The notes below the pieces were generated by a model. The model saw only the letters and a program-made list of their open reading frames with translations. It did not search any database and was not told the DNA's origin. A stretch of DNA of 62,540 nucleotides, counting the filler. It is 6 parts of 6 records of this genome, joined end to end, with 100 filler letters (N's around TTAATTAATTAA, not from the genome) between each part and the next. Parts side by side here need not be neighbours in the genome. Positions count along the whole stretch, not along the records: positions 45,306 to 55,788 come from SRR33789315_81; 5 more parts are not named here. The stretch is one strand, 5' to 3'. This document shows positions 4,997 through 55,888 of the stretch, piece after piece. Both the position numbers and the translations under genes were made by a program. How positions within the stretch are numbered: position 1 is the first letter of the stretch; every line of letters starts with the position of its first letter.

Positions 4997-5512
4997 CAGC
5001 GATCATCCTCAGGTTAGAGAGCTTGCGCTTCTCTCCTATCTCATCGACGCCAAAGGTCTAAAAATTAGAAAACCTAGGTTTCATCGCCTTTTTTATGAAA
5101 AGCGGCATCAATTTCCTTAAATTTATTATAACTTTGACGCCGTGCTCAGCTATTATTTCGACTTAAAAGTCTGACTTTTACGAGATATTAGCTATTTAAG
5201 AATGACTCTTATGGCCGATTTTCTTGACACAGGCCTAGCAAGCTTGCTACTTACGTTATCGACGAGGAGCAATGCAAATCAATCTGTTGATGCGCATCTC
5301 ATTATGTAGACGTAAGTCTTTGTTATTACATCGATAGCTGCTAGGGTTAAATAAAACTAACGCAAAGCAGGGAAAAAACTACACTAGATGTTAACAAAAC
5401 GACGGATTCTATGTATAACGCCCTCGGCTGCATTAAAAAGCTAATTAATTTGTTCTGAAACTGAAACAAGAAAGCTAAACGTTAGATAACTTTCTTCAAA
5501 TAGGGGAAAACG

Positions 5513-5899
5513 ATGACTGAAGTACGTATTATCAAGCGCTACCAAAACCGCAAGCTCTATGACACTCATCAGAGTTGCTACGTGACACTAGAGGAAATCG
5601 CTCAGATTATCCGCGAAGGTCATGAAATCCAAGTGATCGACAATAAGACGAAAAACGACATCACTTATCAAACTCAATTGCAACTTCTTGCAGACCAAGA
5701 GCGTAAAGCCCTTAATGCAAAAGACGTTGAGCTTCTTAAGCGTGTTATTCGTTCTGACGACGGCACTTTCACTGGCTACATTAAAGCCCTTGAAAACAAA
5801 GTTGGTGGAGAGCTTGCTACTCCTAAGACTGAAGAGTTCAAGCCATTTATGGCAACTGAATTGAACGCTTCTGTTGAAACACCTGCTACTTTGAACTAA
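5513..5899 (+). CDS. PhaR-like (PHA synthesis regulator) DNA-binding domain protein
   Basis: IIKRYQNRKLYDT..SCYVTLEEIAQIIREG..IQVIDNKT..DIT signature. Confidence 0.88.
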   Translation: MTEVRIIKRYQNRKLYDTHQSCYVTLEEIAQIIREGHEIQVIDNKTKNDITYQTQLQLLADQERKALNAKDVELLKRVIRSDDGTFTGYIKALENKVGGELATPKTEEFKPFMATELNASVETPATLN

Positions 5900-10520: not shown

Positions 10521-10620
10521 NNNNNNNNNNNNNNNNNNNNNNNNNNNNNNNNNNNNNNNNNNNNTTAATTAATTAANNNNNNNNNNNNNNNNNNNNNNNN
10601 NNNNNNNNNNNNNNNNNNNN
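10521..10620. other. Artificial contig spacer
   Basis: N44-TTAATTAATTAA-N44, stops in all six frames. Confidence 0.99.
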
Positions 10621-22566: not shown

Positions 22567-22666
22567 NNNNNNNNNNNNNNNNNNNNNNNNNNNNNNNNNN
22601 NNNNNNNNNNTTAATTAATTAANNNNNNNNNNNNNNNNNNNNNNNNNNNNNNNNNNNNNNNNNNNN
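22567..22666. other. Artificial contig spacer
   Basis: N44-TTAATTAATTAA-N44. Confidence 0.99.
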
Positions 22667-30502: not shown

Positions 30503-30900
30503 GGGGTCGATTTGGTTTTGACAGCGGGTCTAGTTGGATTGTAAGCACGTCGAGCGCTGGGACATAAGCTCGTAAATCTCAGGTTTCATCTTTTTTAAAC
30601 GGCGAGAATAACTACGCCTTGGCTGCATAATCCGAATCACAGTAGGATTGCTTAATCCCTAACGAGGTTAGGGACCAAGATGCCTCCGGAAAGCCTTGGT
30701 TTGCGGCGGTCCACTAGGAGGCACCGTAAATGTAAACATAGCTATCGCAGGATCCTGATGCGGTAGTGAAACTTAATCGGGAATAAGGTATCGCTTGGTA
30801 GTTGCCGACCGGGTGTTGCACGAAAATCAATTGGCAAATAAGCGTGTAGAAAGCTTTTTAGCTGCTTGTTTGGACGGCGGTTCGAGTCCGCCCGACTCCA
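30503..30900 (+). ncRNA. ssrA: tmRNA; tag frame GENNYALAA* at 30601-30630
   Basis: 5' GGGGTCG pairs with 3' CGACTCC-A (G3-U wobble); T-arm GGCGG-TTCGAGT-CCGCC; tag ends YALAA; TATCTTTG promoter element at 30328. Confidence 0.97.
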
Positions 30901-30923
30901 CTTTTTAAGTTTCAAACTTCAAC

Positions 30924-40995: not shown

Positions 40996-41095
40996 NNNNN
41001 NNNNNNNNNNNNNNNNNNNNNNNNNNNNNNNNNNNNNNNTTAATTAATTAANNNNNNNNNNNNNNNNNNNNNNNNNNNNNNNNNNNNNNNNNNNN
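40996..41095. other. Artificial contig spacer
   Basis: N44-TTAATTAATTAA-N44. Confidence 0.99.
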
Positions 41096-45205: not shown

Positions 45206-45305
45206 NNNNNNNNNNNNNNNNNNNNNNNNNNNNNNNNNNNNNNNNNNNNTTAATTAATTAANNNNNNNNNNNNNNNNNNNNNNNNNNNNNNNNNNNNNNN
45301 NNNNN
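45206..45305. other. Artificial contig spacer
   Basis: N44-TTAATTAATTAA-N44. Confidence 0.99.
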
Positions 45306-45360: not shown

Positions 45361-45990
45361 TTATGCATTTAAGATGGCATGTAATTCTTTAGCGGCTGCG
45401 GCAGGATCTGCTGCACCATAAATGGCTGCTCCGGCTACGGCTACGACTACGCCAGCCTCTTTAACGGCTTTAATACTATCCTTATTTACACCGCCTGCAA
45501 TAGATACCGGTACACCAGCTCGTGCTGCCTCGTCTATTAACACCTGAATAGAGTAACCCGCTTCTGCTTGCTCATCCAGACCAGCATGTAATTCTACAAA
45601 TTCAACGCCCAATGCGGTTACTTCCTGTGCCCGTTTTACACGGTCTTTTACTCCTATGGTATCTACGACTACCGCTCTACCATATTCTTTAGCAGCTTTT
45701 ACGGCACCCACGATAGTCGAGTCTCCTGTAGCTCCTAAAATGGTGATATAATCTGCTCCTGCTTTAAAAGCCATACCAGCCTCTAACTCGCCAGCATCTG
45801 CTGTTTTAAAATCAGCAAAAACCATTTTATCTGGAAATGCTTTTTTCATTGCGGTAATAGCCGATAAGCCTTCGCTTTTAATAAGCGGTGTTCCCAGTTC
45901 TATAATGTCGATATAAGGTGCCACTTTTGTTGCCAAGGCAATGGCGTCTTCTATGCTTAATAAATCGATTGCTACTTGTAATTTAGCCAT
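45361..45990 (-). CDS. hxlA: 3-hexulose-6-phosphate synthase
   Basis: LQVAIDL, IIELGTPLIKSEG, ADFKTADAG, HAGLDEQ; adjacent to SIS isomerase. Confidence 0.93.
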   Translation of the reverse strand: MAKLQVAIDLLSIEDAIALATKVAPYIDIIELGTPLIKSEGLSAITAMKKAFPDKMVFADFKTADAGELEAGMAFKAGADYITILGATGDSTIVGAVKAAKEYGRAVVVDTIGVKDRVKRAQEVTALGVEFVELHAGLDEQAEAGYSIQVLIDEAARAGVPVSIAGGVNKDSIKAVKEAGVVVAVAGAAIYGAADPAAAAKELHAILNA

Positions 45991-46033
45991 AATGTTATCT
46001 TTAAATAATTGTTATAAATGAGGTAAATGTGTT

Positions 46034-46618
46034 CTATTCTAAGTTGGCGTGTCGCTTCCATAATTCGGATGCAGTACTCCCGTCCAGATCCCATAGGGCT
46101 TGTATGAGGGCATCAAAAACCAATAAAAGGGCTTGCTCAAAGAGGCTTCCTGCATATTGCGTAGAAATCTCTGTATTCTGTTTCTGCTTCTCTGCTGCGG
46201 GGATGGTAACTGTAAAGTCAGCCAAGGAGGCTACTGGTGAATGGGCGTCTGTGGTAAAACATACGATGCTGGCTGCTACGGTTTGGGCTTTTTCGGCAGC
46301 GCGTACAATACTACTGGTGGTACCTGACCCAGAACCGGCAAGCAATACATCGCCTTTGGTAATTGCCGGAGTGGTCGTCTCGCCCACAACATAGGCTTTA
46401 AAACCCAAATGCATTAAACGCATTGCGGCTGCTTTCATCATGAGTCCGCTGCGCCCCATCCCCATTAAAAAAACAGCATTCGCTTGTTTTATAACCGGGA
46501 TGATGGCCGCAATTTCATCATATCGAATCTGATCACGAAGTTTGAGGTGTTCTTCTAAGATAGTGGTCATCGCGTTAGTCACGAGTTGTTCTAAATCTTT
46601 GTCAATTGTGTGTTCCAT
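46034..46618 (-). CDS. hxlB: 6-phospho-3-hexuloisomerase
   Basis: GMGRSG, AMRLMHLG, VGETTTP, SGSG, GSLFEQ, RHANLE. Confidence 0.93.
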   Translation of the reverse strand: MEHTIDKDLEQLVTNAMTTILEEHLKLRDQIRYDEIAAIIPVIKQANAVFLMGMGRSGLMMKAAAMRLMHLGFKAYVVGETTTPAITKGDVLLAGSGSGTTSSIVRAAEKAQTVAASIVCFTTDAHSPVASLADFTVTIPAAEKQKQNTEISTQYAGSLFEQALLLVFDALIQALWDLDGSTASELWKRHANLE

Positions 46619-46690
46619 AGCTTGTTAGATCAAAGGCAATACAGTACCAAAATGCCGATACAAAGCTACGGGTAGACGCAGGCGTACAGG

Positions 46691-46775
46691 TTATACTATT
46701 TGGTAGATAAGTGGTACAATTTGCCAATAACCCTTAAAGTGGTGTTAATATGCTCTACTTTTATGGTACATTTTG
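46691..46775. promoter_or_regulatory. Direct repeats, candidate AraC-family binding sites
   Basis: TTATACTATTTG (46691), TGGTACAATTTG (46712, 21-bp period), TGGTACATTTTG (46764). Confidence 0.5.
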
Positions 46776-46834
46776 GAAACAGCTGGTTTATCTTTAAAAA
46801 CCAAAACCTTAACTTCCATTAAAAAACGATTCGT

Positions 46835-47677
46835 ATGCTTAGTGATCAGGTGTTGTATATACGCGATTTAGCCAATTGTCCGCCTTCCTATCTGGATGAC
46901 CCGGGACGTAAAGAGTTTTTTGAAATCGTGTGGTTGCATGATGAAGAAGCGCTGCACAAACCGCAACACAACTTTCAAACCTTAGTAGGCGACTGGATGT
47001 ATTTGATTCCTCCCTATCGCGTACATCAATTGAATAAAGCTGGTAAAAAAGGCGTATTGATTTCCTTTAAACAAGAGTTGCTGGAAGGTGACCTGAAAGA
47101 GTTTTTACTGGATGTGTTTCGTATGTTCAATATACAAGGGGAGTTTTCATGCTTGCAAGTAAATGAAGAAAGCGCCAAAGGATTGGTCTCTGTTTTTACA
47201 CTTTTAGAAGAAGAATACAAGCAAGAAACCTTTAATATGATTATGATAAAGGCCTTGCTTAAAGTGTTTCTTTTAAAATTGATCCAGTTAAAAGAGCAGC
47301 ATTTTACCTTACAAGATCTTAATGAAAAACGCGTGTATGCGTTTATGATGTTACTGGAAAACAATTATCAAGACGAACGAAATGCAGATTTTTATGCAGG
47401 CGAATTAGGGATTAGTCCCAAGCGCTTAAATCAAATTCTCAAGGAGAAATTAGCTAAAACCAGTGTGCAACTTATACACGACCGATTAATTCTAGAGGCT
47501 AAACGCCAAATTATACACAGTGAAAATACCATCAAAGAAATTGCCTATAAGCTGCAGTTTAAAGATCACTCCTATTTCAGTCGGTTTTTTAAATTACATA
47601 CGCAGCAAACCCCTCAAGAGTTTCAAAATAATGTAAAAGCGCATGTGATCGCTCATGAAAACACCTTGTATGTTTAA
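46835..47677 (+). CDS. AraC-family regulator divergent from hxlBA
   Basis: YAGELGISPKRLN...RLILEAKR...IKEIAY.L.FKDHSYFSRFFK. Confidence 0.92.
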   Translation: MLSDQVLYIRDLANCPPSYLDDPGRKEFFEIVWLHDEEALHKPQHNFQTLVGDWMYLIPPYRVHQLNKAGKKGVLISFKQELLEGDLKEFLLDVFRMFNIQGEFSCLQVNEESAKGLVSVFTLLEEEYKQETFNMIMIKALLKVFLLKLIQLKEQHFTLQDLNEKRVYAFMMLLENNYQDERNADFYAGELGISPKRLNQILKEKLAKTSVQLIHDRLILEAKRQIIHSENTIKEIAYKLQFKDHSYFSRFFKLHTQQTPQEFQNNVKAHVIAHENTLYV

Positions 47678-47815
47678 TTTTATAGCGCTTACGGTCTAAA
47701 CACAAATTAAAAAGAATGAAAAATACAATAATCCTTATCATGCTGGTTTTATGCTACACCATCGGTTCTAGTCAAAATAACAATGAAAAGGTTCTATAAA
47801 CACGTTGTGCATACT

Positions 47816-48380
47816 ATGAGAAATGTCCTGCCTCTATTACTTCTTCTTAATTTTTTGAGTTGTTTTTCTCAAGAAATTATGGACGTGGCATTAGCTGACA
47901 AAACAAAACTGATTAGTGAGAATGTTTATCAATTTCACTTAAAAACCAACAAATGGGATATTAAAAATTATCTCTACACACTTGATGAACAGCAAGTAAA
48001 AATTGACTCGCTGACCTTTGTTGAGCTTATACATAAAACCATAGAACAAGACCCCGAAAAATGGAGAAAAAGGGATTTTAAAAACATTTATCTCATTAAA
48101 AAAGGAGAAAAACTTTCATCAAAAAAGGTTTTATCTGAATTAGGTATCTATGACAATAAACAAATAAAATTAATAAAACGACAAATAAAACAATATAACA
48201 ACCGCCCAAATGAATGGAAAGGTTGGCCTTTGTCAATTTCCAAACCTATTTTTTTCAAATGACAACCAATTTTGCATCATCGGATTTGAATTTGGAAACA
48301 ATGGAGGATACACAGAATTATATAAAAGGTCTGAATCTGAATGGAAACAGATGGGAATATTCAACCGATTTGCATATTAA
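47816..48380 (+). pseudogene. Exported hypothetical protein, frameshifted at a T7 run (cassette 1)
   Basis: Signal peptide ending CFS/Q; removing one T at 48249-48255 gives ...SKPIFSNDNQFCIIG...NRFAY* ending at 48380. Confidence 0.7.
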
Positions 48381-48389
48381 AAAGCCAGC

Positions 48390-48527
48390 ACACAACATTG
48401 ACTTTAAGCCATAACTCTTGCCCTAATTAATACCTGTAAACCAACAAATAAGAAAACAACAGGCTTTTCCTACACAAATTATTTCTCATAAAATAATTAC
48501 CTTGTTGGGCATATAAACAAGTTGTGC
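48390..48527. repeat. attC-like imperfect palindrome 1 (138 bp)
   Basis: Left CACAAC-ATTG-ACTTTAAGCC; right GGCATATAAA-CAA-GTTGTG; starts about 10 nt after a stop codon. Confidence 0.65.
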
Positions 48528-48736
48528 ATAATGCGGAAAATCGAGCAAAACAATAAAATGTCGTACCGCAAAGCCAACCGCACAGTCAAGCACATTTCAT
48601 TTTTTTCGTGCCTCAAAAAATAAAAAGAGCTTGCCTTTTCCCACCACTCACTTTTTAGTATGATGATTTTAATACTCATTTAGTGAGATATTTAAAATAG
48701 TTCTTTACATTAGCGGACTGAATAAAAAATTCAAAA

Positions 48737-48937
48737 ATGAACCGAATAAAAGAGGTTTTAGAAATAAAAGGAATTAAACAGATCTGGTTAGCTGAACAAT
48801 TAGGTAAAAGTTATAATATGGTTAATTCTTATGTGCAGAATAGAAGACAACCTAGTATAGAAGATTTATTTAAAATAGCTAAAATATTAGGTGTGGAAGC
48901 ATCAGAACTAATAAATAACTCAAAATCTAATGATTGA
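48737..48937 (+). CDS. XRE HTH protein, candidate R-M controller
   Basis: MNRIKEVL..KGIKQIWLAEQLGKSYNMVNSYVQNRRQPS; overlaps MTase start. Confidence 0.88.
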   Translation: MNRIKEVLEIKGIKQIWLAEQLGKSYNMVNSYVQNRRQPSIEDLFKIAKILGVEASELINNSKSND

Positions 48938-50123
48938 AACTAAAATAAAATTAAAAAGTTCTGTTCAGTTCATTAAATATATGGGGTCAAAAACAAAATT
49001 ACTCCCATTTGTAATAAATGGCATTGAAGAAGCTTATAATGGTGGCGTCATTTGTGACTTATTTGCTGGTTCTTGTTCTCTCTCAGGAGCAATAGGGGAA
49101 CAATTCCCTATTGTTTCTAATGATATTCAAGCATATTCTTCGGTCATTGCTAAAGCCTATTTAACAGATTGGAATGATTGTAAAGTTAATTCCAAAATGG
49201 TAATGGAAATAGCCAAAGAATATCATAAAAAACATTATTCAACTTTATTGAACGATTTAAGACATACGGAGAATAGTAGTCTAAAAGAATTTAACAGAAT
49301 TGAAAAATTAAACCAAAATTTAATAAATCAAGAGTTCGACAATACCTGGCATTTGTTTACTAAAAATTATTCAGGTACTTGGTGGAGTGCAGAACAATGT
49401 ACTTGGATCGACTCAATTCGGAAAGCCATTGAAGACCTAAAAGCAAACCCAGCATATAACACGATGCTTGGGGCGTTAATGTATGCGATGGCATATAATA
49501 GTCAGGGTACTGGACATTACGCACAATATAGAGACGCAAAAACTGATTCTTCTATGAAAGATATTTTAATCTATAGAAAGAAAAGTATAATTGATTATTT
49601 TGAGCGTAAACTTGATTCTGCACTAGAAGCACTCCCTTCAATTCAACCTAAACTAAAGCACGAGGTTTATACATTAGATTACTTGGATTGTCTTAAAAAT
49701 TTAAAAAGCGCTACAGTTTATGCTGATCCGCCCTATTGTTTTGTTCATTATAGCAGGTTTTATCACGCAATAGAAACTTTAGTTTTATATGATTATCCTG
49801 AAATACAACACAAAAATAAAAAAATGGTAAAAGGACGTTATCGAGAAGATAGACATCAATCTCCTTTTAGCATTAAGTCGAAAGTAAAAAATGCTTTTAT
49901 CGATATGTTTGAAATTATAGCAAAAAATAACTCTTCATTAGTTCTTAGCTATAGTGATACAGGAATGATTGAAATTGATGACTTACTAAAAATTACTAAA
50001 GAAGTATTTAAGAAACATACCGTTTCTGTCAAGACTCTTGATTATACCCATATGACTATGGGGCGTAAAGGTGATAGAGACCGAATGGTCAAAGAAAAAT
50101 TAATAATTGTAAAACCTATATAA
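48930..50123 (+). CDS. DNA amino-methyltransferase (D12/Dam-like, probably m6A)
   Basis: KYMGSK, motif I DLFAGSC, motif IV YADPPY (alpha order). Confidence 0.9.
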   Translation: MIETKIKLKSSVQFIKYMGSKTKLLPFVINGIEEAYNGGVICDLFAGSCSLSGAIGEQFPIVSNDIQAYSSVIAKAYLTDWNDCKVNSKMVMEIAKEYHKKHYSTLLNDLRHTENSSLKEFNRIEKLNQNLINQEFDNTWHLFTKNYSGTWWSAEQCTWIDSIRKAIEDLKANPAYNTMLGALMYAMAYNSQGTGHYAQYRDAKTDSSMKDILIYRKKSIIDYFERKLDSALEALPSIQPKLKHEVYTLDYLDCLKNLKSATVYADPPYCFVHYSRFYHAIETLVLYDYPEIQHKNKKMVKGRYREDRHQSPFSIKSKVKNAFIDMFEIIAKNNSSLVLSYSDTGMIEIDDLLKITKEVFKKHTVSVKTLDYTHMTMGRKGDRDRMVKEKLIIVKPI

Positions 50124-50124
50124 T

Positions 50125-51768
50125 ATGGCTATTGGACTTGATGGACACACAGTTTCATTAACAAAAAACGGATATTTTAAATTAGTCAGTTTAATTAAAA
50201 AATATCCTAGTACAGAGATACTTAATCATTTAGATGAGATAAAGCTAGACAGTACACAGGCTAGAAAAATGCTAGCAGGAGATAAAAATAATGTATTACC
50301 AAATGCTTGGGACTCAGTCAGAAAATTTGATAATGCGAGTCAGTACGCCTTACTACTTGTTTCAATTATTTATAGCCATAAAGATTTAATTGAACTTTTC
50401 AAAAACTCAACAAATTTGGAAATGCAAGGTGTAATTTACAGAAAAGACACTGATGGCAAAACATATACAAACTTAGCATATGCCTTAAATGAGGCAGGTG
50501 TCGCTACTGATTTCAGTGCAGGTAGTGATAAAACATCTTACGATTTTACACCAATTCTAGCTAAGAATGAGATTGGACCATTGGCAAAAGAAATATTGAG
50601 TGGACATCTTAAAAATATGGGATGGTTTGAACCTAGTTCAAATGAACCTTTTCAAAGAGATTTCTATGAACAACTGAATTCTTATGAATTGAATAAAGTC
50701 CTTGGTTTATCCTTTATACAATTTCAAGAATGGCTTGAAGGTAAGAATGTTGCTAAAACAATTAGTAATATATCATTATTTAATACTAGGAAAACAATCT
50801 ATTTTGGTGCACCTGGAACGGGTAAATCATATAAAGTAAAGGAAATTTTAAAAGAAAAAGGAGATAGAACAAAAAGAATAACATTTCATCCAGAATATGA
50901 TTACGCTTCTTTTATAGGAGGTTTCAAACCAATATCTGAAAAAGACCCAATTTCTGGGCTAGATGAAATCAAATACAAATTTGTTCCACAAATATTTACA
51001 AATATTTATATTGATGCTTGGCAAAATGAATTTCAAGATTATTTCTTAGTAATTGAAGAAATTAACAGAGGAAACTGTGCCGAAATCTTTGGAGATACAT
51101 TTCAATTATTAGATGAAGGTTATGAAATTACACCTTCAAACGAGTTAGCTAGTCATTTAGAAAAAGAGCTAACTGAAAAAGGTTATAATGGGTTTGTAAA
51201 TGGTAAAATGCAATTACCATCAAACCTAAGTTTATTAGCCACTATGAATACTTCTGACCAATCTTTATTTCCTATGGATAGTGCATTCAAAAGAAGATGG
51301 GATTGGGAATATATACCTATTTGTTATACACCAATTGACGATTTTAATAAGAAAAATGTTTCATTCGATTTCAAAATTGATATTGCAGATGGCAATGAAT
51401 ATAGCTGGATTAAATTTATTGAAAAAATAAACTTAAATCATATAAAAAACAATCAGTCATTAGGTATGGATAAATGTATTGGTAATTATTTTATGAAACC
51501 AGATACAGATAAAACAATATCATTAAATCCATTTATAAACAAAGTAATTTTCTATTTATGGAATGACGTTTTCAAAGATGAAGAAAATAAAGTGTTTGAA
51601 GAAAACACTTCATACGAAGATTTCTTTCCAATGGATATTAAAGGCAAAACAAAAATCAAAGAATTATTCGACAGAATAGAATTAAAACCTATCCAAAACT
51701 TAGAGATTAAAGAAGATGACGCTCAACTTAGGCAAGTGGCAGAAGATAAAGAAGGACTTGATTCTTAA
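50125..51768 (+). CDS. McrB-like AAA+ GTPase with unrecognised N-terminal domain
   Basis: GAPGTGKS, ITFHPEYDYASFIGGFKP, IEEINRG, ATMNTSD, MDSAFKRRW. Confidence 0.92.
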   Translation: MAIGLDGHTVSLTKNGYFKLVSLIKKYPSTEILNHLDEIKLDSTQARKMLAGDKNNVLPNAWDSVRKFDNASQYALLLVSIIYSHKDLIELFKNSTNLEMQGVIYRKDTDGKTYTNLAYALNEAGVATDFSAGSDKTSYDFTPILAKNEIGPLAKEILSGHLKNMGWFEPSSNEPFQRDFYEQLNSYELNKVLGLSFIQFQEWLEGKNVAKTISNISLFNTRKTIYFGAPGTGKSYKVKEILKEKGDRTKRITFHPEYDYASFIGGFKPISEKDPISGLDEIKYKFVPQIFTNIYIDAWQNEFQDYFLVIEEINRGNCAEIFGDTFQLLDEGYEITPSNELASHLEKELTEKGYNGFVNGKMQLPSNLSLLATMNTSDQSLFPMDSAFKRRWDWEYIPICYTPIDDFNKKNVSFDFKIDIADGNEYSWIKFIEKINLNHIKNNQSLGMDKCIGNYFMKPDTDKTISLNPFINKVIFYLWNDVFKDEENKVFEENTSYEDFFPMDIKGKTKIKELFDRIELKPIQNLEIKEDDAQLRQVAEDKEGLDS

Positions 51769-51770
51769 AA

Positions 51771-53459
51771 ATGAAAATACTAATTGAAAACGAAATATAT
51801 CCGATTGAATTACTTCAAGAAGTGTTCGCTGACCCAAAATTTTATAAACAAAACGGTTTAGATGGGACAATTACCTCTGTAGGATATTACCATTCTTTTG
51901 AGAAAAATAGTTTGGTGTTTATGTTACCAAAAGTTTTTATGAAGGAAGAAAATAAAACTGTTTTTGGTTGTTCAAAAAAAGAATTAGTAGATTTAATTTT
52001 AGATGAATCCATAAAACATAAAACACAATATAATTGGGTTCGCCAATTATCCGTACATTTTTATAAAAGTCTAATTGAGTTCAGAAAGAGATCCGATGAT
52101 ACATCTATAATTCATAATATCGAAACTTTTGAATTAAACACAAATTTAAACCTTAAAGAATATTCTTATCTAGATCTATTACTGTCTTTCGTAAATTTTT
52201 ACAAAAAGAATAAAAACCATATTTTATATAAACATATTGAGTACAATTCAAACCAAGCAATAAAACCAAAATGGGAAAAAACAATAAGAAAATCATTACC
52301 CATTCTAAATTCAAATAATATACCTATCTATGTTTCAATAAGAAATAAAATAAAAACTGTAAATACAGAAGAAGAATTATTGACATACTTTTTTTCTATT
52401 CTAAACAACTTCAACCACGTACATAAACTTAATTTAAGAATTGATAAATCATTTTCAATAATAAAGGGTAAGTCATTTAAAAATCTTCAATCAAATGGTC
52501 TTTCTAAACTACGAAAAATCAAGTATCGATATTTTAATGACACTTTAAAGAGAATGTACACCTTATGTGAAATATATTTTTCTCAAACAGATAAGAGTAG
52601 CTCAAAAAGAAAAAGGGAGGATTTTTTATCGGTAAATAATTATAATATCGTATTTGAAGATATGGTAGATAAATTATTCTCTGACGAGTTAAATGATACT
52701 GAAGTAAACAATGTATCTCTTAAAGATTTGAAAAAAAATGACGATGGGAAGATAATTGACCATATTTATGACTATCAGTCCATTATAGACACTAGCAATA
52801 TTTTTTATATTGGAGATTCAAAATATTACAAATCAAATAGTGAAGCAGGGAAATTATCTAAATATAAGCAATTCACGTATGCGAAAAATGTTATTCAGTT
52901 CAATATAGATTTATTGAATGAAGATAAGGATAAGCCTTATAAAAAGAGTATTAAATATAGAGACGAAATAACAGAAGGTTATAATATTACACCTAACTTT
53001 TTCATTTATGGTTATATAGAAGATGAAGATAATTTTGATGAACACTTGATTGAAAAAAAGACAGAATTACCAATCAAATCTTATCATTTTAAAGAACGGT
53101 TATTTGATAGAGACACGCTTTTTGTTCATCAGTATAAAATTAATTTTTTGTACGTTTTAAAAGCATACACTAGCTTTAATTCAACAAATACTCAAGAGTT
53201 CAGAAAGGAAGTAAAAAGAGGCTTTAGAAAACATTTTATTGACTTCTTTAATAATTCTAAAAGCTGTGAGTTTGAGTTCTATAAATGCAAATCTAAAACA
53301 GAAGAAAAATATAAATCTATTGTAACGGACAATTTTAAATCCTTAAATGGTAAATGTTATGTGAATATGGAAAATGAATTAATTTTAGCGAAACATATTG
53401 AAGACACTATAGTTAAATCTATTATGGACGAGTTTGAAGTAATGACTGAATTACTATAA
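51771..53459 (+). CDS. LlaJI-family / McrC-like restriction endonuclease subunit
   Basis: VFEDMVD, IIDHIY...IGDSKYYK...KQFTYA, a PD-(D/E)xK-type core; follows McrB-like gene. Confidence 0.82.
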   Translation: MKILIENEIYPIELLQEVFADPKFYKQNGLDGTITSVGYYHSFEKNSLVFMLPKVFMKEENKTVFGCSKKELVDLILDESIKHKTQYNWVRQLSVHFYKSLIEFRKRSDDTSIIHNIETFELNTNLNLKEYSYLDLLLSFVNFYKKNKNHILYKHIEYNSNQAIKPKWEKTIRKSLPILNSNNIPIYVSIRNKIKTVNTEEELLTYFFSILNNFNHVHKLNLRIDKSFSIIKGKSFKNLQSNGLSKLRKIKYRYFNDTLKRMYTLCEIYFSQTDKSSSKRKREDFLSVNNYNIVFEDMVDKLFSDELNDTEVNNVSLKDLKKNDDGKIIDHIYDYQSIIDTSNIFYIGDSKYYKSNSEAGKLSKYKQFTYAKNVIQFNIDLLNEDKDKPYKKSIKYRDEITEGYNITPNFFIYGYIEDEDNFDEHLIEKKTELPIKSYHFKERLFDRDTLFVHQYKINFLYVLKAYTSFNSTNTQEFRKEVKRGFRKHFIDFFNNSKSCEFEFYKCKSKTEEKYKSIVTDNFKSLNGKCYVNMENELILAKHIEDTIVKSIMDEFEVMTELL

Positions 53460-53606
53460 ATAAGCCAACACTCAAAGTCATACACATTCGCAATTCGCGT
53501 CAGCCAACGCTACACCAAAAATCGCAAAAGAGTATGTCTCGCCAACGCTCAATTCCGAACTAAACAAGAAACATCGGAAAACAAAGCTGTACGTGAAAAG
53601 CACTAT

Positions 53607-53798
53607 GCACAACAACGTGTATAAAACATAGCTATTATAGGCTTTTCGAGAGGTTATTGCTTATTTGAAGTACGCCAAATTTTTAATTTTATATATTTAG
53701 AAAAGAAAATTAAACATTAAAAAAAAAATCGGCTCGTTCTAAATCCGAAAAGTTAGCGTTTATTTATACGCTACGTTTCATACACAATACCGTTGACA
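53607..53798. repeat. attC-like imperfect palindrome 2 (192 bp)
   Basis: Left CAAC-AAC-GTGTATAAAACATAGC; right GCTACGTTTCATACAC-AATACC-GTTG; two A.C mismatches become T.G on bottom strand. Confidence 0.75.
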
Positions 53799-53845
53799 GT
53801 AATTATGACCCGTCCTGAAATATGTATACACTAAACAACAAGTAT

Positions 53846-54211
53846 ATGTATAAAAATGATGGATATGTAAGACGCTATAGCGAAAGCTTTAAACTCAAAG
53901 TCCTTGACGAACTTTCCAAGGGAAACCACTCTAAAAGACAAATAGGACTGCTCTATGGCATACAGCCAAGCACTATTAACGAATGGATTAAAAAGTACAA
54001 TCGTAAAGATTTAATGAACACCCGCGTACTCGTGCAAACAGACGATGAACTTACCCGAATAAAAGCCCTGCAAAAGGAGCTCAAACAGCTAAAGGAACTT
54101 CTCATAAAGAAAGACCTAGATAAACTTATTGATGATAGTTATCTCAAAGTAGCGGCTAATAAATTAGGCTATAAAGATGTTTTAGAACTTAAAAAAAAAC
54201 TAAACATCTAG
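53846..54211 (+). CDS. IS3 transposase OrfA (HTH)
   Basis: RRYSESFKLKVL..YGIQPSTINEWIKKY; A9 run at 54191-54199 gives an open -1 frame into OrfB. Confidence 0.9.
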   Translation: MYKNDGYVRRYSESFKLKVLDELSKGNHSKRQIGLLYGIQPSTINEWIKKYNRKDLMNTRVLVQTDDELTRIKALQKELKQLKELLIKKDLDKLIDDSYLKVAANKLGYKDVLELKKKLNI

Positions 54212-54216
54212 CACTA

Positions 54217-55074
54217 ATGGAAACTATAGACAATAACCCAAAAGAAATACCCTTTAGCATCTTCACTATTTGCAAGGGATATGACTTGACTCGTGATGCA
54301 TTTTATAAATACAAAAAACGATTTGTCAAGCGAATAAAAATTGAAAATCAGGTATTGGAAATCGTTCACAAAAGAAGAAGGACATTACCCAGAGAAGGCG
54401 CTCGAAAGTTGATGCACTCACTAAAAATGGACTTTGAGAAACACAATATCAAAATAGGTAGAGACCAGTTATTATGTATCCTTAGAGATAATGACCTATT
54501 AATACGGAGAAAGAAATATTCCTCCAGGACAACCAATTCACATCATAGGTTTTACAAATATAAAAACAGTATTAAAGAAGTAGAAATAAATAGACCAAAC
54601 CAAGTCTGGGCAGCAGACATAACATACATCAGAACCATAAAAGGATTTTGTTACTTAGCGCTATTAACCGATATGTACTCGCGTAAAATCGTAGGATATG
54701 ACCTAAGTGATAGCTTAGAACTAACAGGCTGTGTAAGGGCTCTTAAAAAGGCATTGTATCATAATACAGAACTGAGGAACCTGACGCACCACTCAGACAG
54801 AGGAATACAGTATTGCAGTAATGTATACACCAAAGAACTCAAGAGAAAGAAGATAGAAATCAGTATGACAGAGGAAAATCATTGTTATGAAAACGCTCTC
54901 GCAGAACGTGTAAATGGAATACTAAAAGATGAATTTTATCTCGACCAGACCTTTGCTAGTGTGGAAGAGGCAAAAAGAGCAACCAAAAATGCAATCAAAT
55001 TATACAACTCTAAAAGATTACATTTATCTTTAGACTATAAAATACCTAATAACGTGCACCAAAATGCAGCTTAA
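54217..55074 (+). CDS. IS3 transposase OrfB (DDE)
   Basis: PNQVWAADITYI, HHSDRGIQY, ENALAERVNGILKDE. Confidence 0.95.
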   Translation: METIDNNPKEIPFSIFTICKGYDLTRDAFYKYKKRFVKRIKIENQVLEIVHKRRRTLPREGARKLMHSLKMDFEKHNIKIGRDQLLCILRDNDLLIRRKKYSSRTTNSHHRFYKYKNSIKEVEINRPNQVWAADITYIRTIKGFCYLALLTDMYSRKIVGYDLSDSLELTGCVRALKKALYHNTELRNLTHHSDRGIQYCSNVYTKELKRKKIEISMTEENHCYENALAERVNGILKDEFYLDQTFASVEEAKRATKNAIKLYNSKRLHLSLDYKIPNNVHQNAA

Positions 55075-55150
55075 TTTTAATCAATAACCTGTAGACGTAT
55101 TTTAGGACGAGACATTATAATAAAATCGAAAATTTAACAAAATTGAATTT

Positions 55151-55717
55151 ATGTGTTTATCTACAATTTCCTTATTCGTATCAATTTTTGCTCTAGGTTT
55201 TTCAATTTATATATTTTGGGAAAATAATTTCCGTATAAAAAACACAGTTGCTTTAGGTAAAGATGCAAAATTAATAGTTGTTGAAAATCAACCTTCAATC
55301 TTATTAAATTTAGCTATAATCAACACTGGTGGGAAAACTAGTTTTATTGAAAATATAAAAATCATTTTGAAACTTACAAAAAAGGGAAACGTTTTTTTGA
55401 CAAACGAAATGTATTTAAAAAGAGAATTTACAGGCTCTTTTGATAATTTAGTAAATGATTATATTTTTAATGAAATATCACCAATAGTTATTATTGGAAA
55501 AACATTTATTACAAAAAAGTATTTATTCACACCTAATATAAAAATCCAACAAGACAATATAGAAAACCAATTTGATATTGAAATAATATTGTATTCAAAA
55601 GAGAACAATAAATGGAAAAAACAAAAAAGTTATGTTTCCAAAAATGTATCAGAAATTTGGCATGATTTAAATGCTGTAAGAAATAAAAATACCATAATAG
55701 AGTTGGACGAAAAATAA
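55151..55717 (+). CDS. AT-rich hypothetical protein with N-terminal TM helix (cassette 3)
   Basis: ISLFVSIFALGFSIYIFW anchor; AGCTAAC follows the stop. Confidence 0.7.
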   Translation: MCLSTISLFVSIFALGFSIYIFWENNFRIKNTVALGKDAKLIVVENQPSILLNLAIINTGGKTSFIENIKIILKLTKKGNVFLTNEMYLKREFTGSFDNLVNDYIFNEISPIVIIGKTFITKKYLFTPNIKIQQDNIENQFDIEIILYSKENNKWKKQKSYVSKNVSEIWHDLNAVRNKNTIIELDEK

Positions 55718-55721
55718 CAAA

Positions 55722-55777
55722 AGCTAACAAAGACGTATTTAATTTATGGCTAGTTCTAGCCTACTTACGAAAATCCT
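55722..55777. repeat. Probable left arm of attC-like site 3, cut by contig end
   Basis: AGCTAAC 5 nt after stop; contig then ends in CACTTCGACAA, the reverse complement of a REP core. Confidence 0.45.
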
Positions 55778-55788
55778 CACTTCGACAA

Positions 55789-55888
55789 NNNNNNNNNNNN
55801 NNNNNNNNNNNNNNNNNNNNNNNNNNNNNNNNTTAATTAATTAANNNNNNNNNNNNNNNNNNNNNNNNNNNNNNNNNNNNNNNNNNNN
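55789..55888. other. Artificial contig spacer
   Basis: N44-TTAATTAATTAA-N44. Confidence 0.99.

Follow-up and report, generated by a model that had tools for sequence, protein, structure and literature searches.

The window analysed here is a stretch of 62,540 bases of DNA, and with a probability of roughly 85% we consider its part between 47.8 and 55.8 kb to be a fragment of an integron-like cassette array of a Flavobacteriaceae chromosome. It would correspond to a CALIN (cluster of attC sites lacking integron-integrases), with a Xer-like recombinase present in relatives. The original prediction for this DNA had proposed a Bacteroidota cassette system with long non-canonical attC-like sites, served in trans by a tyrosine recombinase, and the analyses described below support this proposal.

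The array consists of three units lying on the plus strand. Cassette 1 (47807-48523) comprises a lipoprotein-like gene and site 1. Cassette 2 (48524-53794, 5.27 kb) comprises a leader, four genes, a conserved non-coding sequence termed part 1 (53460-53600, between the last stop codon and the site) and site 2, and cassette 3 (53795-55788) comprises a gene for a 188-aa protein and the left arm of site 3. The GTT cores are found at 47804-47806, 48521-48523 and 53792-53794 and the AAC inverse cores at 48394-48396, 53611-53613 and 55726-55728, all six at the positions predicted. The layout of three co-oriented units proposed at the same time is also correct; the third unit, however, is not a plain one, since an insertion sequence (IS) of the IS3 family interrupts it.

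Judged from the window alone the evidence for attC-like sites is weak. The exact 10-mer GTTGTGCATA occurs three times in the 62.5 kb (at 47804 and 48521 on the plus strand and at 53604 on the minus strand), all inside 5.8 kb; with one mismatch allowed there are seven copies in the window, a number not above chance, being reached in 14 of 100 shuffles. Site 2 (53600-53804, minus strand) is a long-type attC-like site of 184 nt from the AAC at 53611 to the end of the GTT at 53794, and it is the bottom strand which folds. Taken alone this fold is marginal (z scores of -1.31 for the top and -1.93 for the bottom strand).

A sensitive BLAST search with the spacers against loci harbouring homologues of the AraC-type regulator gene left of the array gave two Zobellia matches, each behind an unrelated gene, and this led us to a repeat family. 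Searching with the site 2 region we found one to eight copies in each of five Zobellia genomes. Fifteen copies align over about 205 nt and end sharply, with ...AAC at the left boundary and GTT... at the right one. A covariance model built from the repeat family, R1, assigns 179.8 bits (E 5e-37) to site 2 and 27.2 bits to its opposite strand, and the model R2 gives 69 bits. The region 53607-53798, which had been proposed as an attC-like site, is thus a full member of a family of structured repeats of about 205 nt. R1 has 52, 42, 14, 33 and 24 matches in the five Zobellia genomes and matches at E≤1e-6 in 120 of 151 sampled Flavobacteriaceae genomes, so that the existence of such a family of sites is borne out. 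Measured from AAC to GTT the sites are 184-194 nt (long type) or 120-130 nt (short type) in length, compared with the usual 57-141 nt of attC sites, and the sequence is common to the members throughout; shorter variants of about 79-89 nt (R1 matches of 100 and 111 nt) occur in arrays of Zobellia laminariae. The features observed in the family are the AAC/GTT cores, bulged bases and a bottom-strand fold supported by covariation.

The consensus fold calculated with RNAalifold amounts to -13.9 kcal/mol with 27 pairs for the bottom strand and to -3.1 kcal/mol with nine pairs for the top strand. In a MAFFT alignment made blind to structure 90.8% of the cells pair and eight pairs are compensatory, which was reached in 0 of 500 shuffles, and slid controls gave 35-53%. 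In a larger alignment of 43 sequences, fitted to the model, 19 of the 27 pairs are compensatory, 90.9% pair (73% when shuffled, 34-53% when slid) and two pairs are G.U in 43/43 and 41/43 sequences. On the gene strand these two pairs are A.C, and the selected fold therefore lies on the strand antisense to the genes. The strand asymmetry that had been noticed in site 2, A.C mismatches turning into G.T pairs on the bottom strand, is hence a trait of the whole family.

Repeats of this kind could also be selfish elements resembling repetitive extragenic palindromic (REP) sequences or miniature inverted-repeat transposable elements (MITEs), or else terminators or small-RNA genes, in which case their cassette-like setting would be a coincidence. 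Although members of the family are numerous and scattered, many genomes having just one, and each is bounded by terminal inverted repeats and contains a hairpin with T-rich sequence behind it, we regard this explanation as extremely improbable. In arrays the copies are co-oriented and each abuts the stop codon of a co-oriented open reading frame (ORF), their flanks obey a complementarity rule linking each site to the preceding one, and units of gene plus site move as a whole and are bounded at GTT. No Rfam family was matched: a search of the window at gathering scores returned only a transfer-messenger RNA (tmRNA), and at E≤1 four loci gave two matches of chance level. As the G.U pairs put the fold on the strand antisense to the genes, it is not that of an mRNA terminator.

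Site 3 of the cassette array is a short-type site of which only the left arm is present, a 63-nt stub from the AAC at 55726 to the end of the contig. The stub (55710-55778) agrees in 57 of 66 aligned bases with a Zobellia short-type site (L112:15216-15359), and the match, in the final 79 bases of the contig, spans the stop-codon context, R'' and the left arm and reaches into the central hairpin. A hidden Markov model (HMM) of the left arm ranks the stub as its second-best match of the window (E 0.099); R2 misses the shortened site, which was recognised by plain alignment. Assembled contigs from four runs match 55734-55778 and continue with the other half of the central hairpin. Because of the Zobellia match and this continuation we take site 3 to be real and the assembly to have broken within the repeat.

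The cassette organization is best seen in the complete genome of Z. laminariae. The covariance-model scan which had been suggested earlier revealed there two 36-kb stretches, one with 21 and one with 24 sites, which are co-oriented and about 209, 144 or 100 nt long, and as a rule each interval holds one co-oriented ORF whose stop codon abuts the site. In integrons the first bases of a cassette after the preceding G/TT belong to the cassette's own attC and are complementary to R''. We therefore compared the 7 nt before the AAC of each site with the 7 nt after the GTT of the preceding site, and found them to be reverse complements in 10 of 17 cases in one array (array 2) and in 7 of 22 in the other (array 1). 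The same comparison with the site's own GTT was positive in 1/17 and 0/23 cases, and with all other sites in 2/306 and 0/507, for array 2 and array 1, respectively. Most of the exceptions to the rule come after a recurrent cassette of about 265 nt which has no ORF and itself obeys the rule. This ORF-less cassette is present in 12 copies over the two arrays (L112-L115, e.g., L112:15347-15610); it is the first unit beside the recombinase gene, its own ends are complementary over 14 nt and its site is of a GC-richer type. Furthermore, one cassette of 1,183 nt, bounded at the GTT cores, is 99.7% identical between both arrays. Ten Zobellia cassette ORFs were scanned for protein families; the matches comprise a caspase-domain protein, a KAP NTPase, DUF4261, a GNAT acetyltransferase and an AAA_15 fragment, and five of the ten had no match.

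In the window the rule is seen in cassette 2. Its start GTTGTGCATA (48521) and its own R'' TATGCACAAC (53604) lie 5.1 kb apart and are complementary over 10 nt without mismatch, and in 13 of 14 positions when extended. A metagenome scan with the 562-aa protein encoded by this cassette yielded 77 loci, to 27 of which R1 was applied. In 8 of the 27 an R1 site lies 120-150 nt behind the homologue, as in the window, and in one more at 1.2 kb. The homology to the window begins at GTT in L135/L137, L138, L139, L142 and L184, with a different upstream site each time, and it ends at the GTT of site 2 in L135/L137, L136, L138 and L142, with unrelated DNA beyond. Locus L184, despite an identity of 97.8% with the window along 4 kb, differs from it in the upstream neighbour and in the R' extension. 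The two ends of the cassette co-vary across 5 kb: GTTGTGCATA goes together with TATGCACAAC in the window and in L135/L137, and GTTGTGTGTA with TACACACAAC in L138 and L142.

Assembled contigs from four marine studies cover about 48570-53530 at about 98% identity. Coverage was low or absent for cassette 1, for the greater part of the IS and for the gene of the 188-aa protein, and we draw no conclusion from this. Where contigs of the four studies match site 2 they diverge from the window at its two cores (53611-53615 and 53787-53794). The joints listed in this comparison link parts of different repeat copies and have short sides. Breakpoints at the GTT cores, as the original prediction demanded, are thus seen both in the cassette shared by the Zobellia arrays and in the cassette 2 homologues of the metagenome loci. 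Discrete cassettes are exchanged at G/TT, the crossover being resolved to within or just 5′ of GTT.

A simpler history would be an ordinary defence island, in which the restriction-modification operon of cassette 2 and the IS arrived separately beside the AraC gene and the GTTGTGCATA repeats are relics of insertion. The low GC content of the array (0.24-0.33, as against 0.42-0.46 in the flank with the AraC and hexulose-phosphate genes) and the IS3 element agree with such a history, as does the occurrence of the operon outside arrays elsewhere, bounded by a 27-nt imperfect direct repeat (48570-48596 and 53461-53488). It would, however, leave unexplained that sites 2 and 3 belong to the repeat family, that in six loci the homology starts at GTT behind unrelated sites and that the two ends of cassette 2 have changed in a compensatory manner, and we judge it quite improbable. 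A plain defence or IS island with a chance repeat had already been dropped once the repeat family, its fold and the Zobellia matches emerged. The defence island may rather be an added layer. As the operon is found outside arrays it possibly entered cassette 2 by another route, and it may constitute a nested mobile unit inside the cassette.

For the cassette array we then looked for a recombinase. No integrase lies next to the array, as had been noted, and none is present elsewhere in the window. This absence is partly an artefact, since the contig is only 10.5 kb long and ends inside site 3, and it says little because the window was joined from six contigs. In all five Zobellia genomes the best match to the integron-integrase model is a recombinase gene, or a fragment of one, of a single type. 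In G001, G004 and G005 the distance to the first site of the array is 0.9-2.5 kb and the gene is divergent from the array; in G003 only a fragment with an in-frame stop is present, about 7.5 kb from a site, and in G002 no R1 site is listed on the contig with the recombinase. We also examined the six best homologues of P0001, the recombinase of Z. laminariae (355 aa), which are 38-45% identical to it and come from five other genomes of the family. They lie 0.8-6.3 kb upstream of co-oriented sites, and in these genomes (G009, G099, G115, G119 and G121) the recombinase is co-directional with the cassettes, unlike in Zobellia. The co-occurring tyrosine recombinase anticipated by the prediction is thus found at the head of the array in eight genomes. 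In Z. laminariae the start codon of the recombinase gene is preceded, at a distance of about 150 nt, by a first GTT junction. Array 1 of this genome has no intact recombinase gene; on the reverse strand of L114+L115 the stretch 5128-5540 is 89% identical to the stretch of array 2 from the start of the recombinase gene to the first cassettes and looks like the remnant of an attI-like region. The window contains no attI site next to an integrase gene.

The sequence of P0001 remains under the cut-off of every model. It obtains 195 bits with the XerA/integron-integrase model (cut-off 220), 192 bits with the integron-integrase model TIGR02249 (cut-off 265), 127 bits with NF011946 (cut-off 435), and 175 and 170 bits with XerC and XerD. 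When aligned to the Vibrio integrase IntI4 (PDB 2a3v) it covers residues 12-214 and 247-319, and the insertion specific to IntI, residues ~215-246, has no counterpart. The co-directional type, read by eye, is without the insertion as well. The I2 helix by which the IntI of a classical integron is recognised is accordingly missing, and P0001 is a Xer-like recombinase, not an IntI.

These features bear on the possibility that the array belongs to a classical integron, with canonical attC sites and a true IntI beyond the end of the contig. With integrons the system has in common the AAC/GTT cores, the fold of the bottom strand, cassettes in a single orientation and the footprint of the crossover, and TIGR02249 is among the top two NCBIfam matches of the recombinase. 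But its score falls short of the cut-off, no protein in any of the five Zobellia genomes exceeds the cut-off of the integron-integrase model, and both recombinase types skip the IntI insertion. Moreover, the lengths of the long- and short-type sites and the sequence they share from end to end speak against canonical attC. According to the available text of the second IntegronFinder paper (10.1101/2022.02.28.482270), only In0 elements had been found earlier in Bacteroidetes, and one complete integron was found in Salinibacter. We therefore consider a classical integron to be very improbable.

For the integron-like array with a Xer-like recombinase we propose the following mechanism. Each unit is a discrete mobile cassette consisting of genes and then a structured site running from ...AAC to GTT.... 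The start of a cassette, following the preceding GTT, is the reverse complement of the bases before its own AAC, so that the two ends of the excised circle could pair and form one long imperfect hairpin. The selection on the strand antisense to the genes points to the folded bottom strand as the substrate, as in attC. The excised cassette would fold its bottom strand, and a tyrosine recombinase would cleave the hairpin at the AAC/GTT box, as in integrons; cleavage of a folded hairpin is expected because of the complementarity 120-190 nt apart which is compensated across 5 kb, the strand-asymmetric wobble pairs and the exchange at a fixed GTT. The enzyme would probably be the Xer-like recombinase at the array heads, seen in relatives only and devoid of the IntI insertion. 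In the organism of the window it must act in trans, unless the array is no longer active.

Several observations weigh against our interpretation. Site 1, 130 nt from the AAC at 48394 to the GTT ending at 48523 (plus strand, R'' context AAAGCCAGCACACAAC), does not fold better than shuffled sequences (48390-48527, z scores of -0.34 and -0.86), and the search for inverted repeats in it found a single one of 8 nt. R1 does not match it and R2, with filters off and 1.2 kb searched, gives 10.2 bits (E 0.09), so that the earlier description of site 1 as an imperfect inverted repeat goes not beyond chance. Site A (47795-47813, plus strand), a right-arm-like half-site with the GTT at 47804 for which a left arm was not found, scores 7.9 bits (E 0.27) with R2 when the filters are off and is not matched by the right-arm HMM. 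Both sites lie outside the modelled families (R1, R2 and the half-site HMMs) and resemble the family at their ends only, namely in the R'' context and in the right arm with GTT. They owe their standing to their position, to a 30-nt direct repeat (24 of 30 positions alike) shared by site A and the right end of site 1, and to the GTT of site 1, at which cassette 2 is proven to start. In our reading site 1 has diverged or decayed, and site A is a half-site which marks the array's edge.

Cassette 2, with four genes and a regulator of its own, is unlike typical cassettes with a single ORF, and its operon occurs also outside arrays, where the homology has its limits at 48570 and about 53460. No excised circle and no exact deletion of a cassette was found among the assembled contigs compared, and a recombinase of the array type was not found in the 62.5-kb window (tblastn, E>0.7). 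The array recombinase is without the I2 insertion, which is said to enable single-strand recombination; in the accessible part of one study, acquiring the I2 helix took IntI from double-strand to single-strand recombination (PMC7790495). The structure counts of the 43-sequence alignment come from sequences fitted to the model and are to be read with this caveat. The array looks partly decayed: site 1 is weak, cassette 1 probably carries a frameshift and an IS sits in cassette 3.

The window is made up of six contigs separated by five linkers of the form N44-TTAATTAATTAA-N44 (10521-10620, 22567-22666, 40996-41095, 45206-45305 and 55789-55888), and neighbourhood across the linkers is therefore artificial. 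The array is on the fifth contig (45306-55788, 10,483 bp, GC 0.32). The left 2.4 kb of this contig is a conserved chromosomal block (45361-47677) with genes named by eye as hexulose-phosphate synthase-like (45361-45990) and isomerase-like (46034-46618), both on the minus strand, and the AraC-type regulator gene (46835-47677, plus strand). Flavobacteriaceae such as Zobellia, Maribacter and Arenibacter have proteins with up to 86% identity to the regulator, which makes the contig flavobacterial, as had been thought. In all 80 AraC loci compared, DNA homology to the window has ended by 47625-47684, where the AraC gene ends or a little ahead of that point; the DNA to the right of 47.7 kb is accessory. 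Between the AraC gene and site A we read by eye a remnant of a signal-peptide-like ORF of 27 codons (47717-47800). Two observations concern other contigs of the window. The DapB of the last contig (56046-56861) looks gammaproteobacterial by eye, unlike the contig of the array, and the record may be a mixed bin. A tmRNA gene (30503-30903, plus strand; tag peptide GENNYALAA) was recognised by Rfam (117 bits) and ARAGORN.

All genes of the array are on the plus strand. The lipoprotein-like gene of cassette 1 (47816-48262) has no family match; judging from the ORF layout it is probably frameshifted into 48210-48380, the stop of the second frame lying just before the R'' context of site 1. Cassette 2 encodes an HTH (helix–turn–helix) controller-like protein (48737-48937), a D12-class adenine methyltransferase (48930-50123), a McrB-like AAA+ subunit (50125-51768; 146 bits with a PADLOC type II restriction enzyme model) and, in the place of McrC, the 562-aa protein (51771-53459), which has no family match. 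Together they form what is apparently an intact restriction-modification operon of four genes. A single query with the 562-aa protein gave no match at E≤1e-10 in 401 sampled Flavobacteriaceae genomes, and apart from a short HTH match no homologues of the cassette proteins were found in the first 133 loci. The homologous cassettes of L135-L147 encode a 562-aa protein counterpart with about 80% identity, but at the DNA level the methyltransferase gene and the part coding for the N terminus of the McrB-like subunit (48930-50796) are unaligned with the window and differ in length, which suggests swapped specificity modules.

Part 1 (~140 nt) contains three GCCAACRCT motifs, and copies which are about 84% identical are found behind unrelated genes in Zobellia and in metagenomes (L001:4008-4103, L088 on the reverse strand, L145, L149 and L156). 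The copy in L001 adjoins a fragment of a second hexulose-phosphate synthase gene, and no full site follows. In cassette 3 the IS3-family element (53806-55114, plus strand; orfA 53822-54211, orfB 54217-55074) was identified by its transposase (230 bits with the transpos_IS3 model, cut-off 160). Its ends, as read from the sequence, are imperfect terminal inverted repeats flanked by TTA on both sides (53803-53805 and 55115-55117). The insertion point lies 9 bp (53795-53803) past the GTT of site 2, within the leader of cassette 3. The gene for the 188-aa membrane-anchored protein (55151-55717, plus strand) has no family match.

The closest described relatives of the array are integrons, in the form of CALINs, and the rAID-1 (recombinase-associated acquired interbacterial defence) clusters of Bacteroidales. 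At the DNA level the array works like a sedentary chromosomal integron or CALIN: the cassettes are co-oriented, mostly with one ORF, and each terminates in an imperfect palindrome that has AAC...GTT cores, selection maintains the fold of the bottom strand, the 5′ end of the cassette pairs with its own R'' and the crossover footprint is at GTT. The cargo is accessory and includes defence genes, and the sites form families that are homogeneous at the species level, as the Vibrio repeats do in integrons. In Zobellia, in addition, a divergent tyrosine recombinase is placed 0.9-2.5 kb from the first site. The array fails, however, the defining protein test, because the flavobacterial recombinase is without the IntI insertion and under the integron-integrase cut-offs. 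Further differences are sites which exceed canonical attC in length and whose sequence is conserved from end to end, an R''/R' pairing of 9-10 nt or more, the co-directional recombinase in five other flavobacterial genomes and a host phylum in which integrons are reported to be nearly absent. Integrons and CALINs are defined in the IntegronFinder papers, as far as their accessible text goes (bioRxiv 10.1101/030866; 10.1101/2022.02.28.482270). A CALIN has at least two attC sites and no integrase; here sites 2 and 3 are well supported and two sites are weak, the sites are not canonical attC and the contig ends inside site 3. In the accessible parts of a review (PMC8618304) and an article (PMC9668308) Bacteroidota are listed among the integron-bearing phyla, with no detail given there.

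The nearest description of such a system is rAID-1 of gut Bacteroidales. In the available text (10.1101/471110) it comprises a recombinase of the XerD family and co-directional genes of low GC content, between which lie repetitive motifs 'reminiscent of integrons'. The likeness, which we draw from this description, lies in the same phylum, a 5′ XerD-family recombinase, arrays of co-oriented short low-GC genes and conserved repetitive intergenic motifs, and the co-directional layout agrees with that of G009, G099, G115, G119 and G121. The clusters described there come from gut Bacteroidales and carry orphan immunity genes, whereas our array comes from a marine member of the Flavobacteriaceae, with a restriction-modification operon and genes for a lipoprotein and a membrane protein as its cargo. 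The description, in the text available, gives no model of a folded site, no crossover point and no cassette limits. Three criteria are used there, namely a 5′ XerD-like recombinase at least 44% identical to BF9343_RS08045, at least two co-directional low-GC genes (≤41%) with repeat motifs, and orphan immunity cargo. The cassette genes of the window, all on the plus strand, with GC 0.24-0.33 and separated by sites of the repeat family, have the second property; instead of orphan immunity genes the window holds restriction-modification genes and three proteins without family match. The accessible part of a 2025 preprint calls the biogenesis mechanism of the rAID clusters an open question (PMC12247911).

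Gene modules bounded by short recombination sites and a Xer-family recombinase are also common to our array and Xer/dif systems. The pdif modules of Acinetobacter plasmids have double-strand sites of 28 bp at their borders, and the orientation of these sites alternates, whereas the flavobacterial sites are hairpin-forming elements of 120-194 nt in direct orientation. Arrays of this kind in Flavobacteriaceae were not found described in the literature searched, a search to which supplements such as figure S4 of the rAID-1 paper did not belong, and the system is apparently new in print for this family.

To sum up, the gene-capture system is common in marine Flavobacteriaceae. The IntI-specific helix is regarded as an innovation for the recombination of folded single strands, and integrons as nearly absent from Bacteroidota; here a system with the hallmarks of integrons is present in 120 of 151 sampled Flavobacteriaceae genomes and headed by a recombinase without that helix. 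We slightly favour the broader view that Flavobacteriaceae, and perhaps Bacteroidota at large if rAID-1 is included, capture genes family-wide at folded single-strand AAC/GTT sites by means of a Xer-type recombinase lacking I2. If this is true, attC-type chemistry would not require the I2 domain, or else the system would be a solution that is independent or ancestral, and a large reservoir of mobile cassettes, with defence systems among them, would escape standard integron finders. The site model with its cores, fold and crossover footprint is a concrete one for the so far unexplained biogenesis of rAID clusters, and a complete restriction-modification system is seen to travel as a cassette between marine bacteria, within a class of mobile elements that is probably overlooked by current integron annotation.

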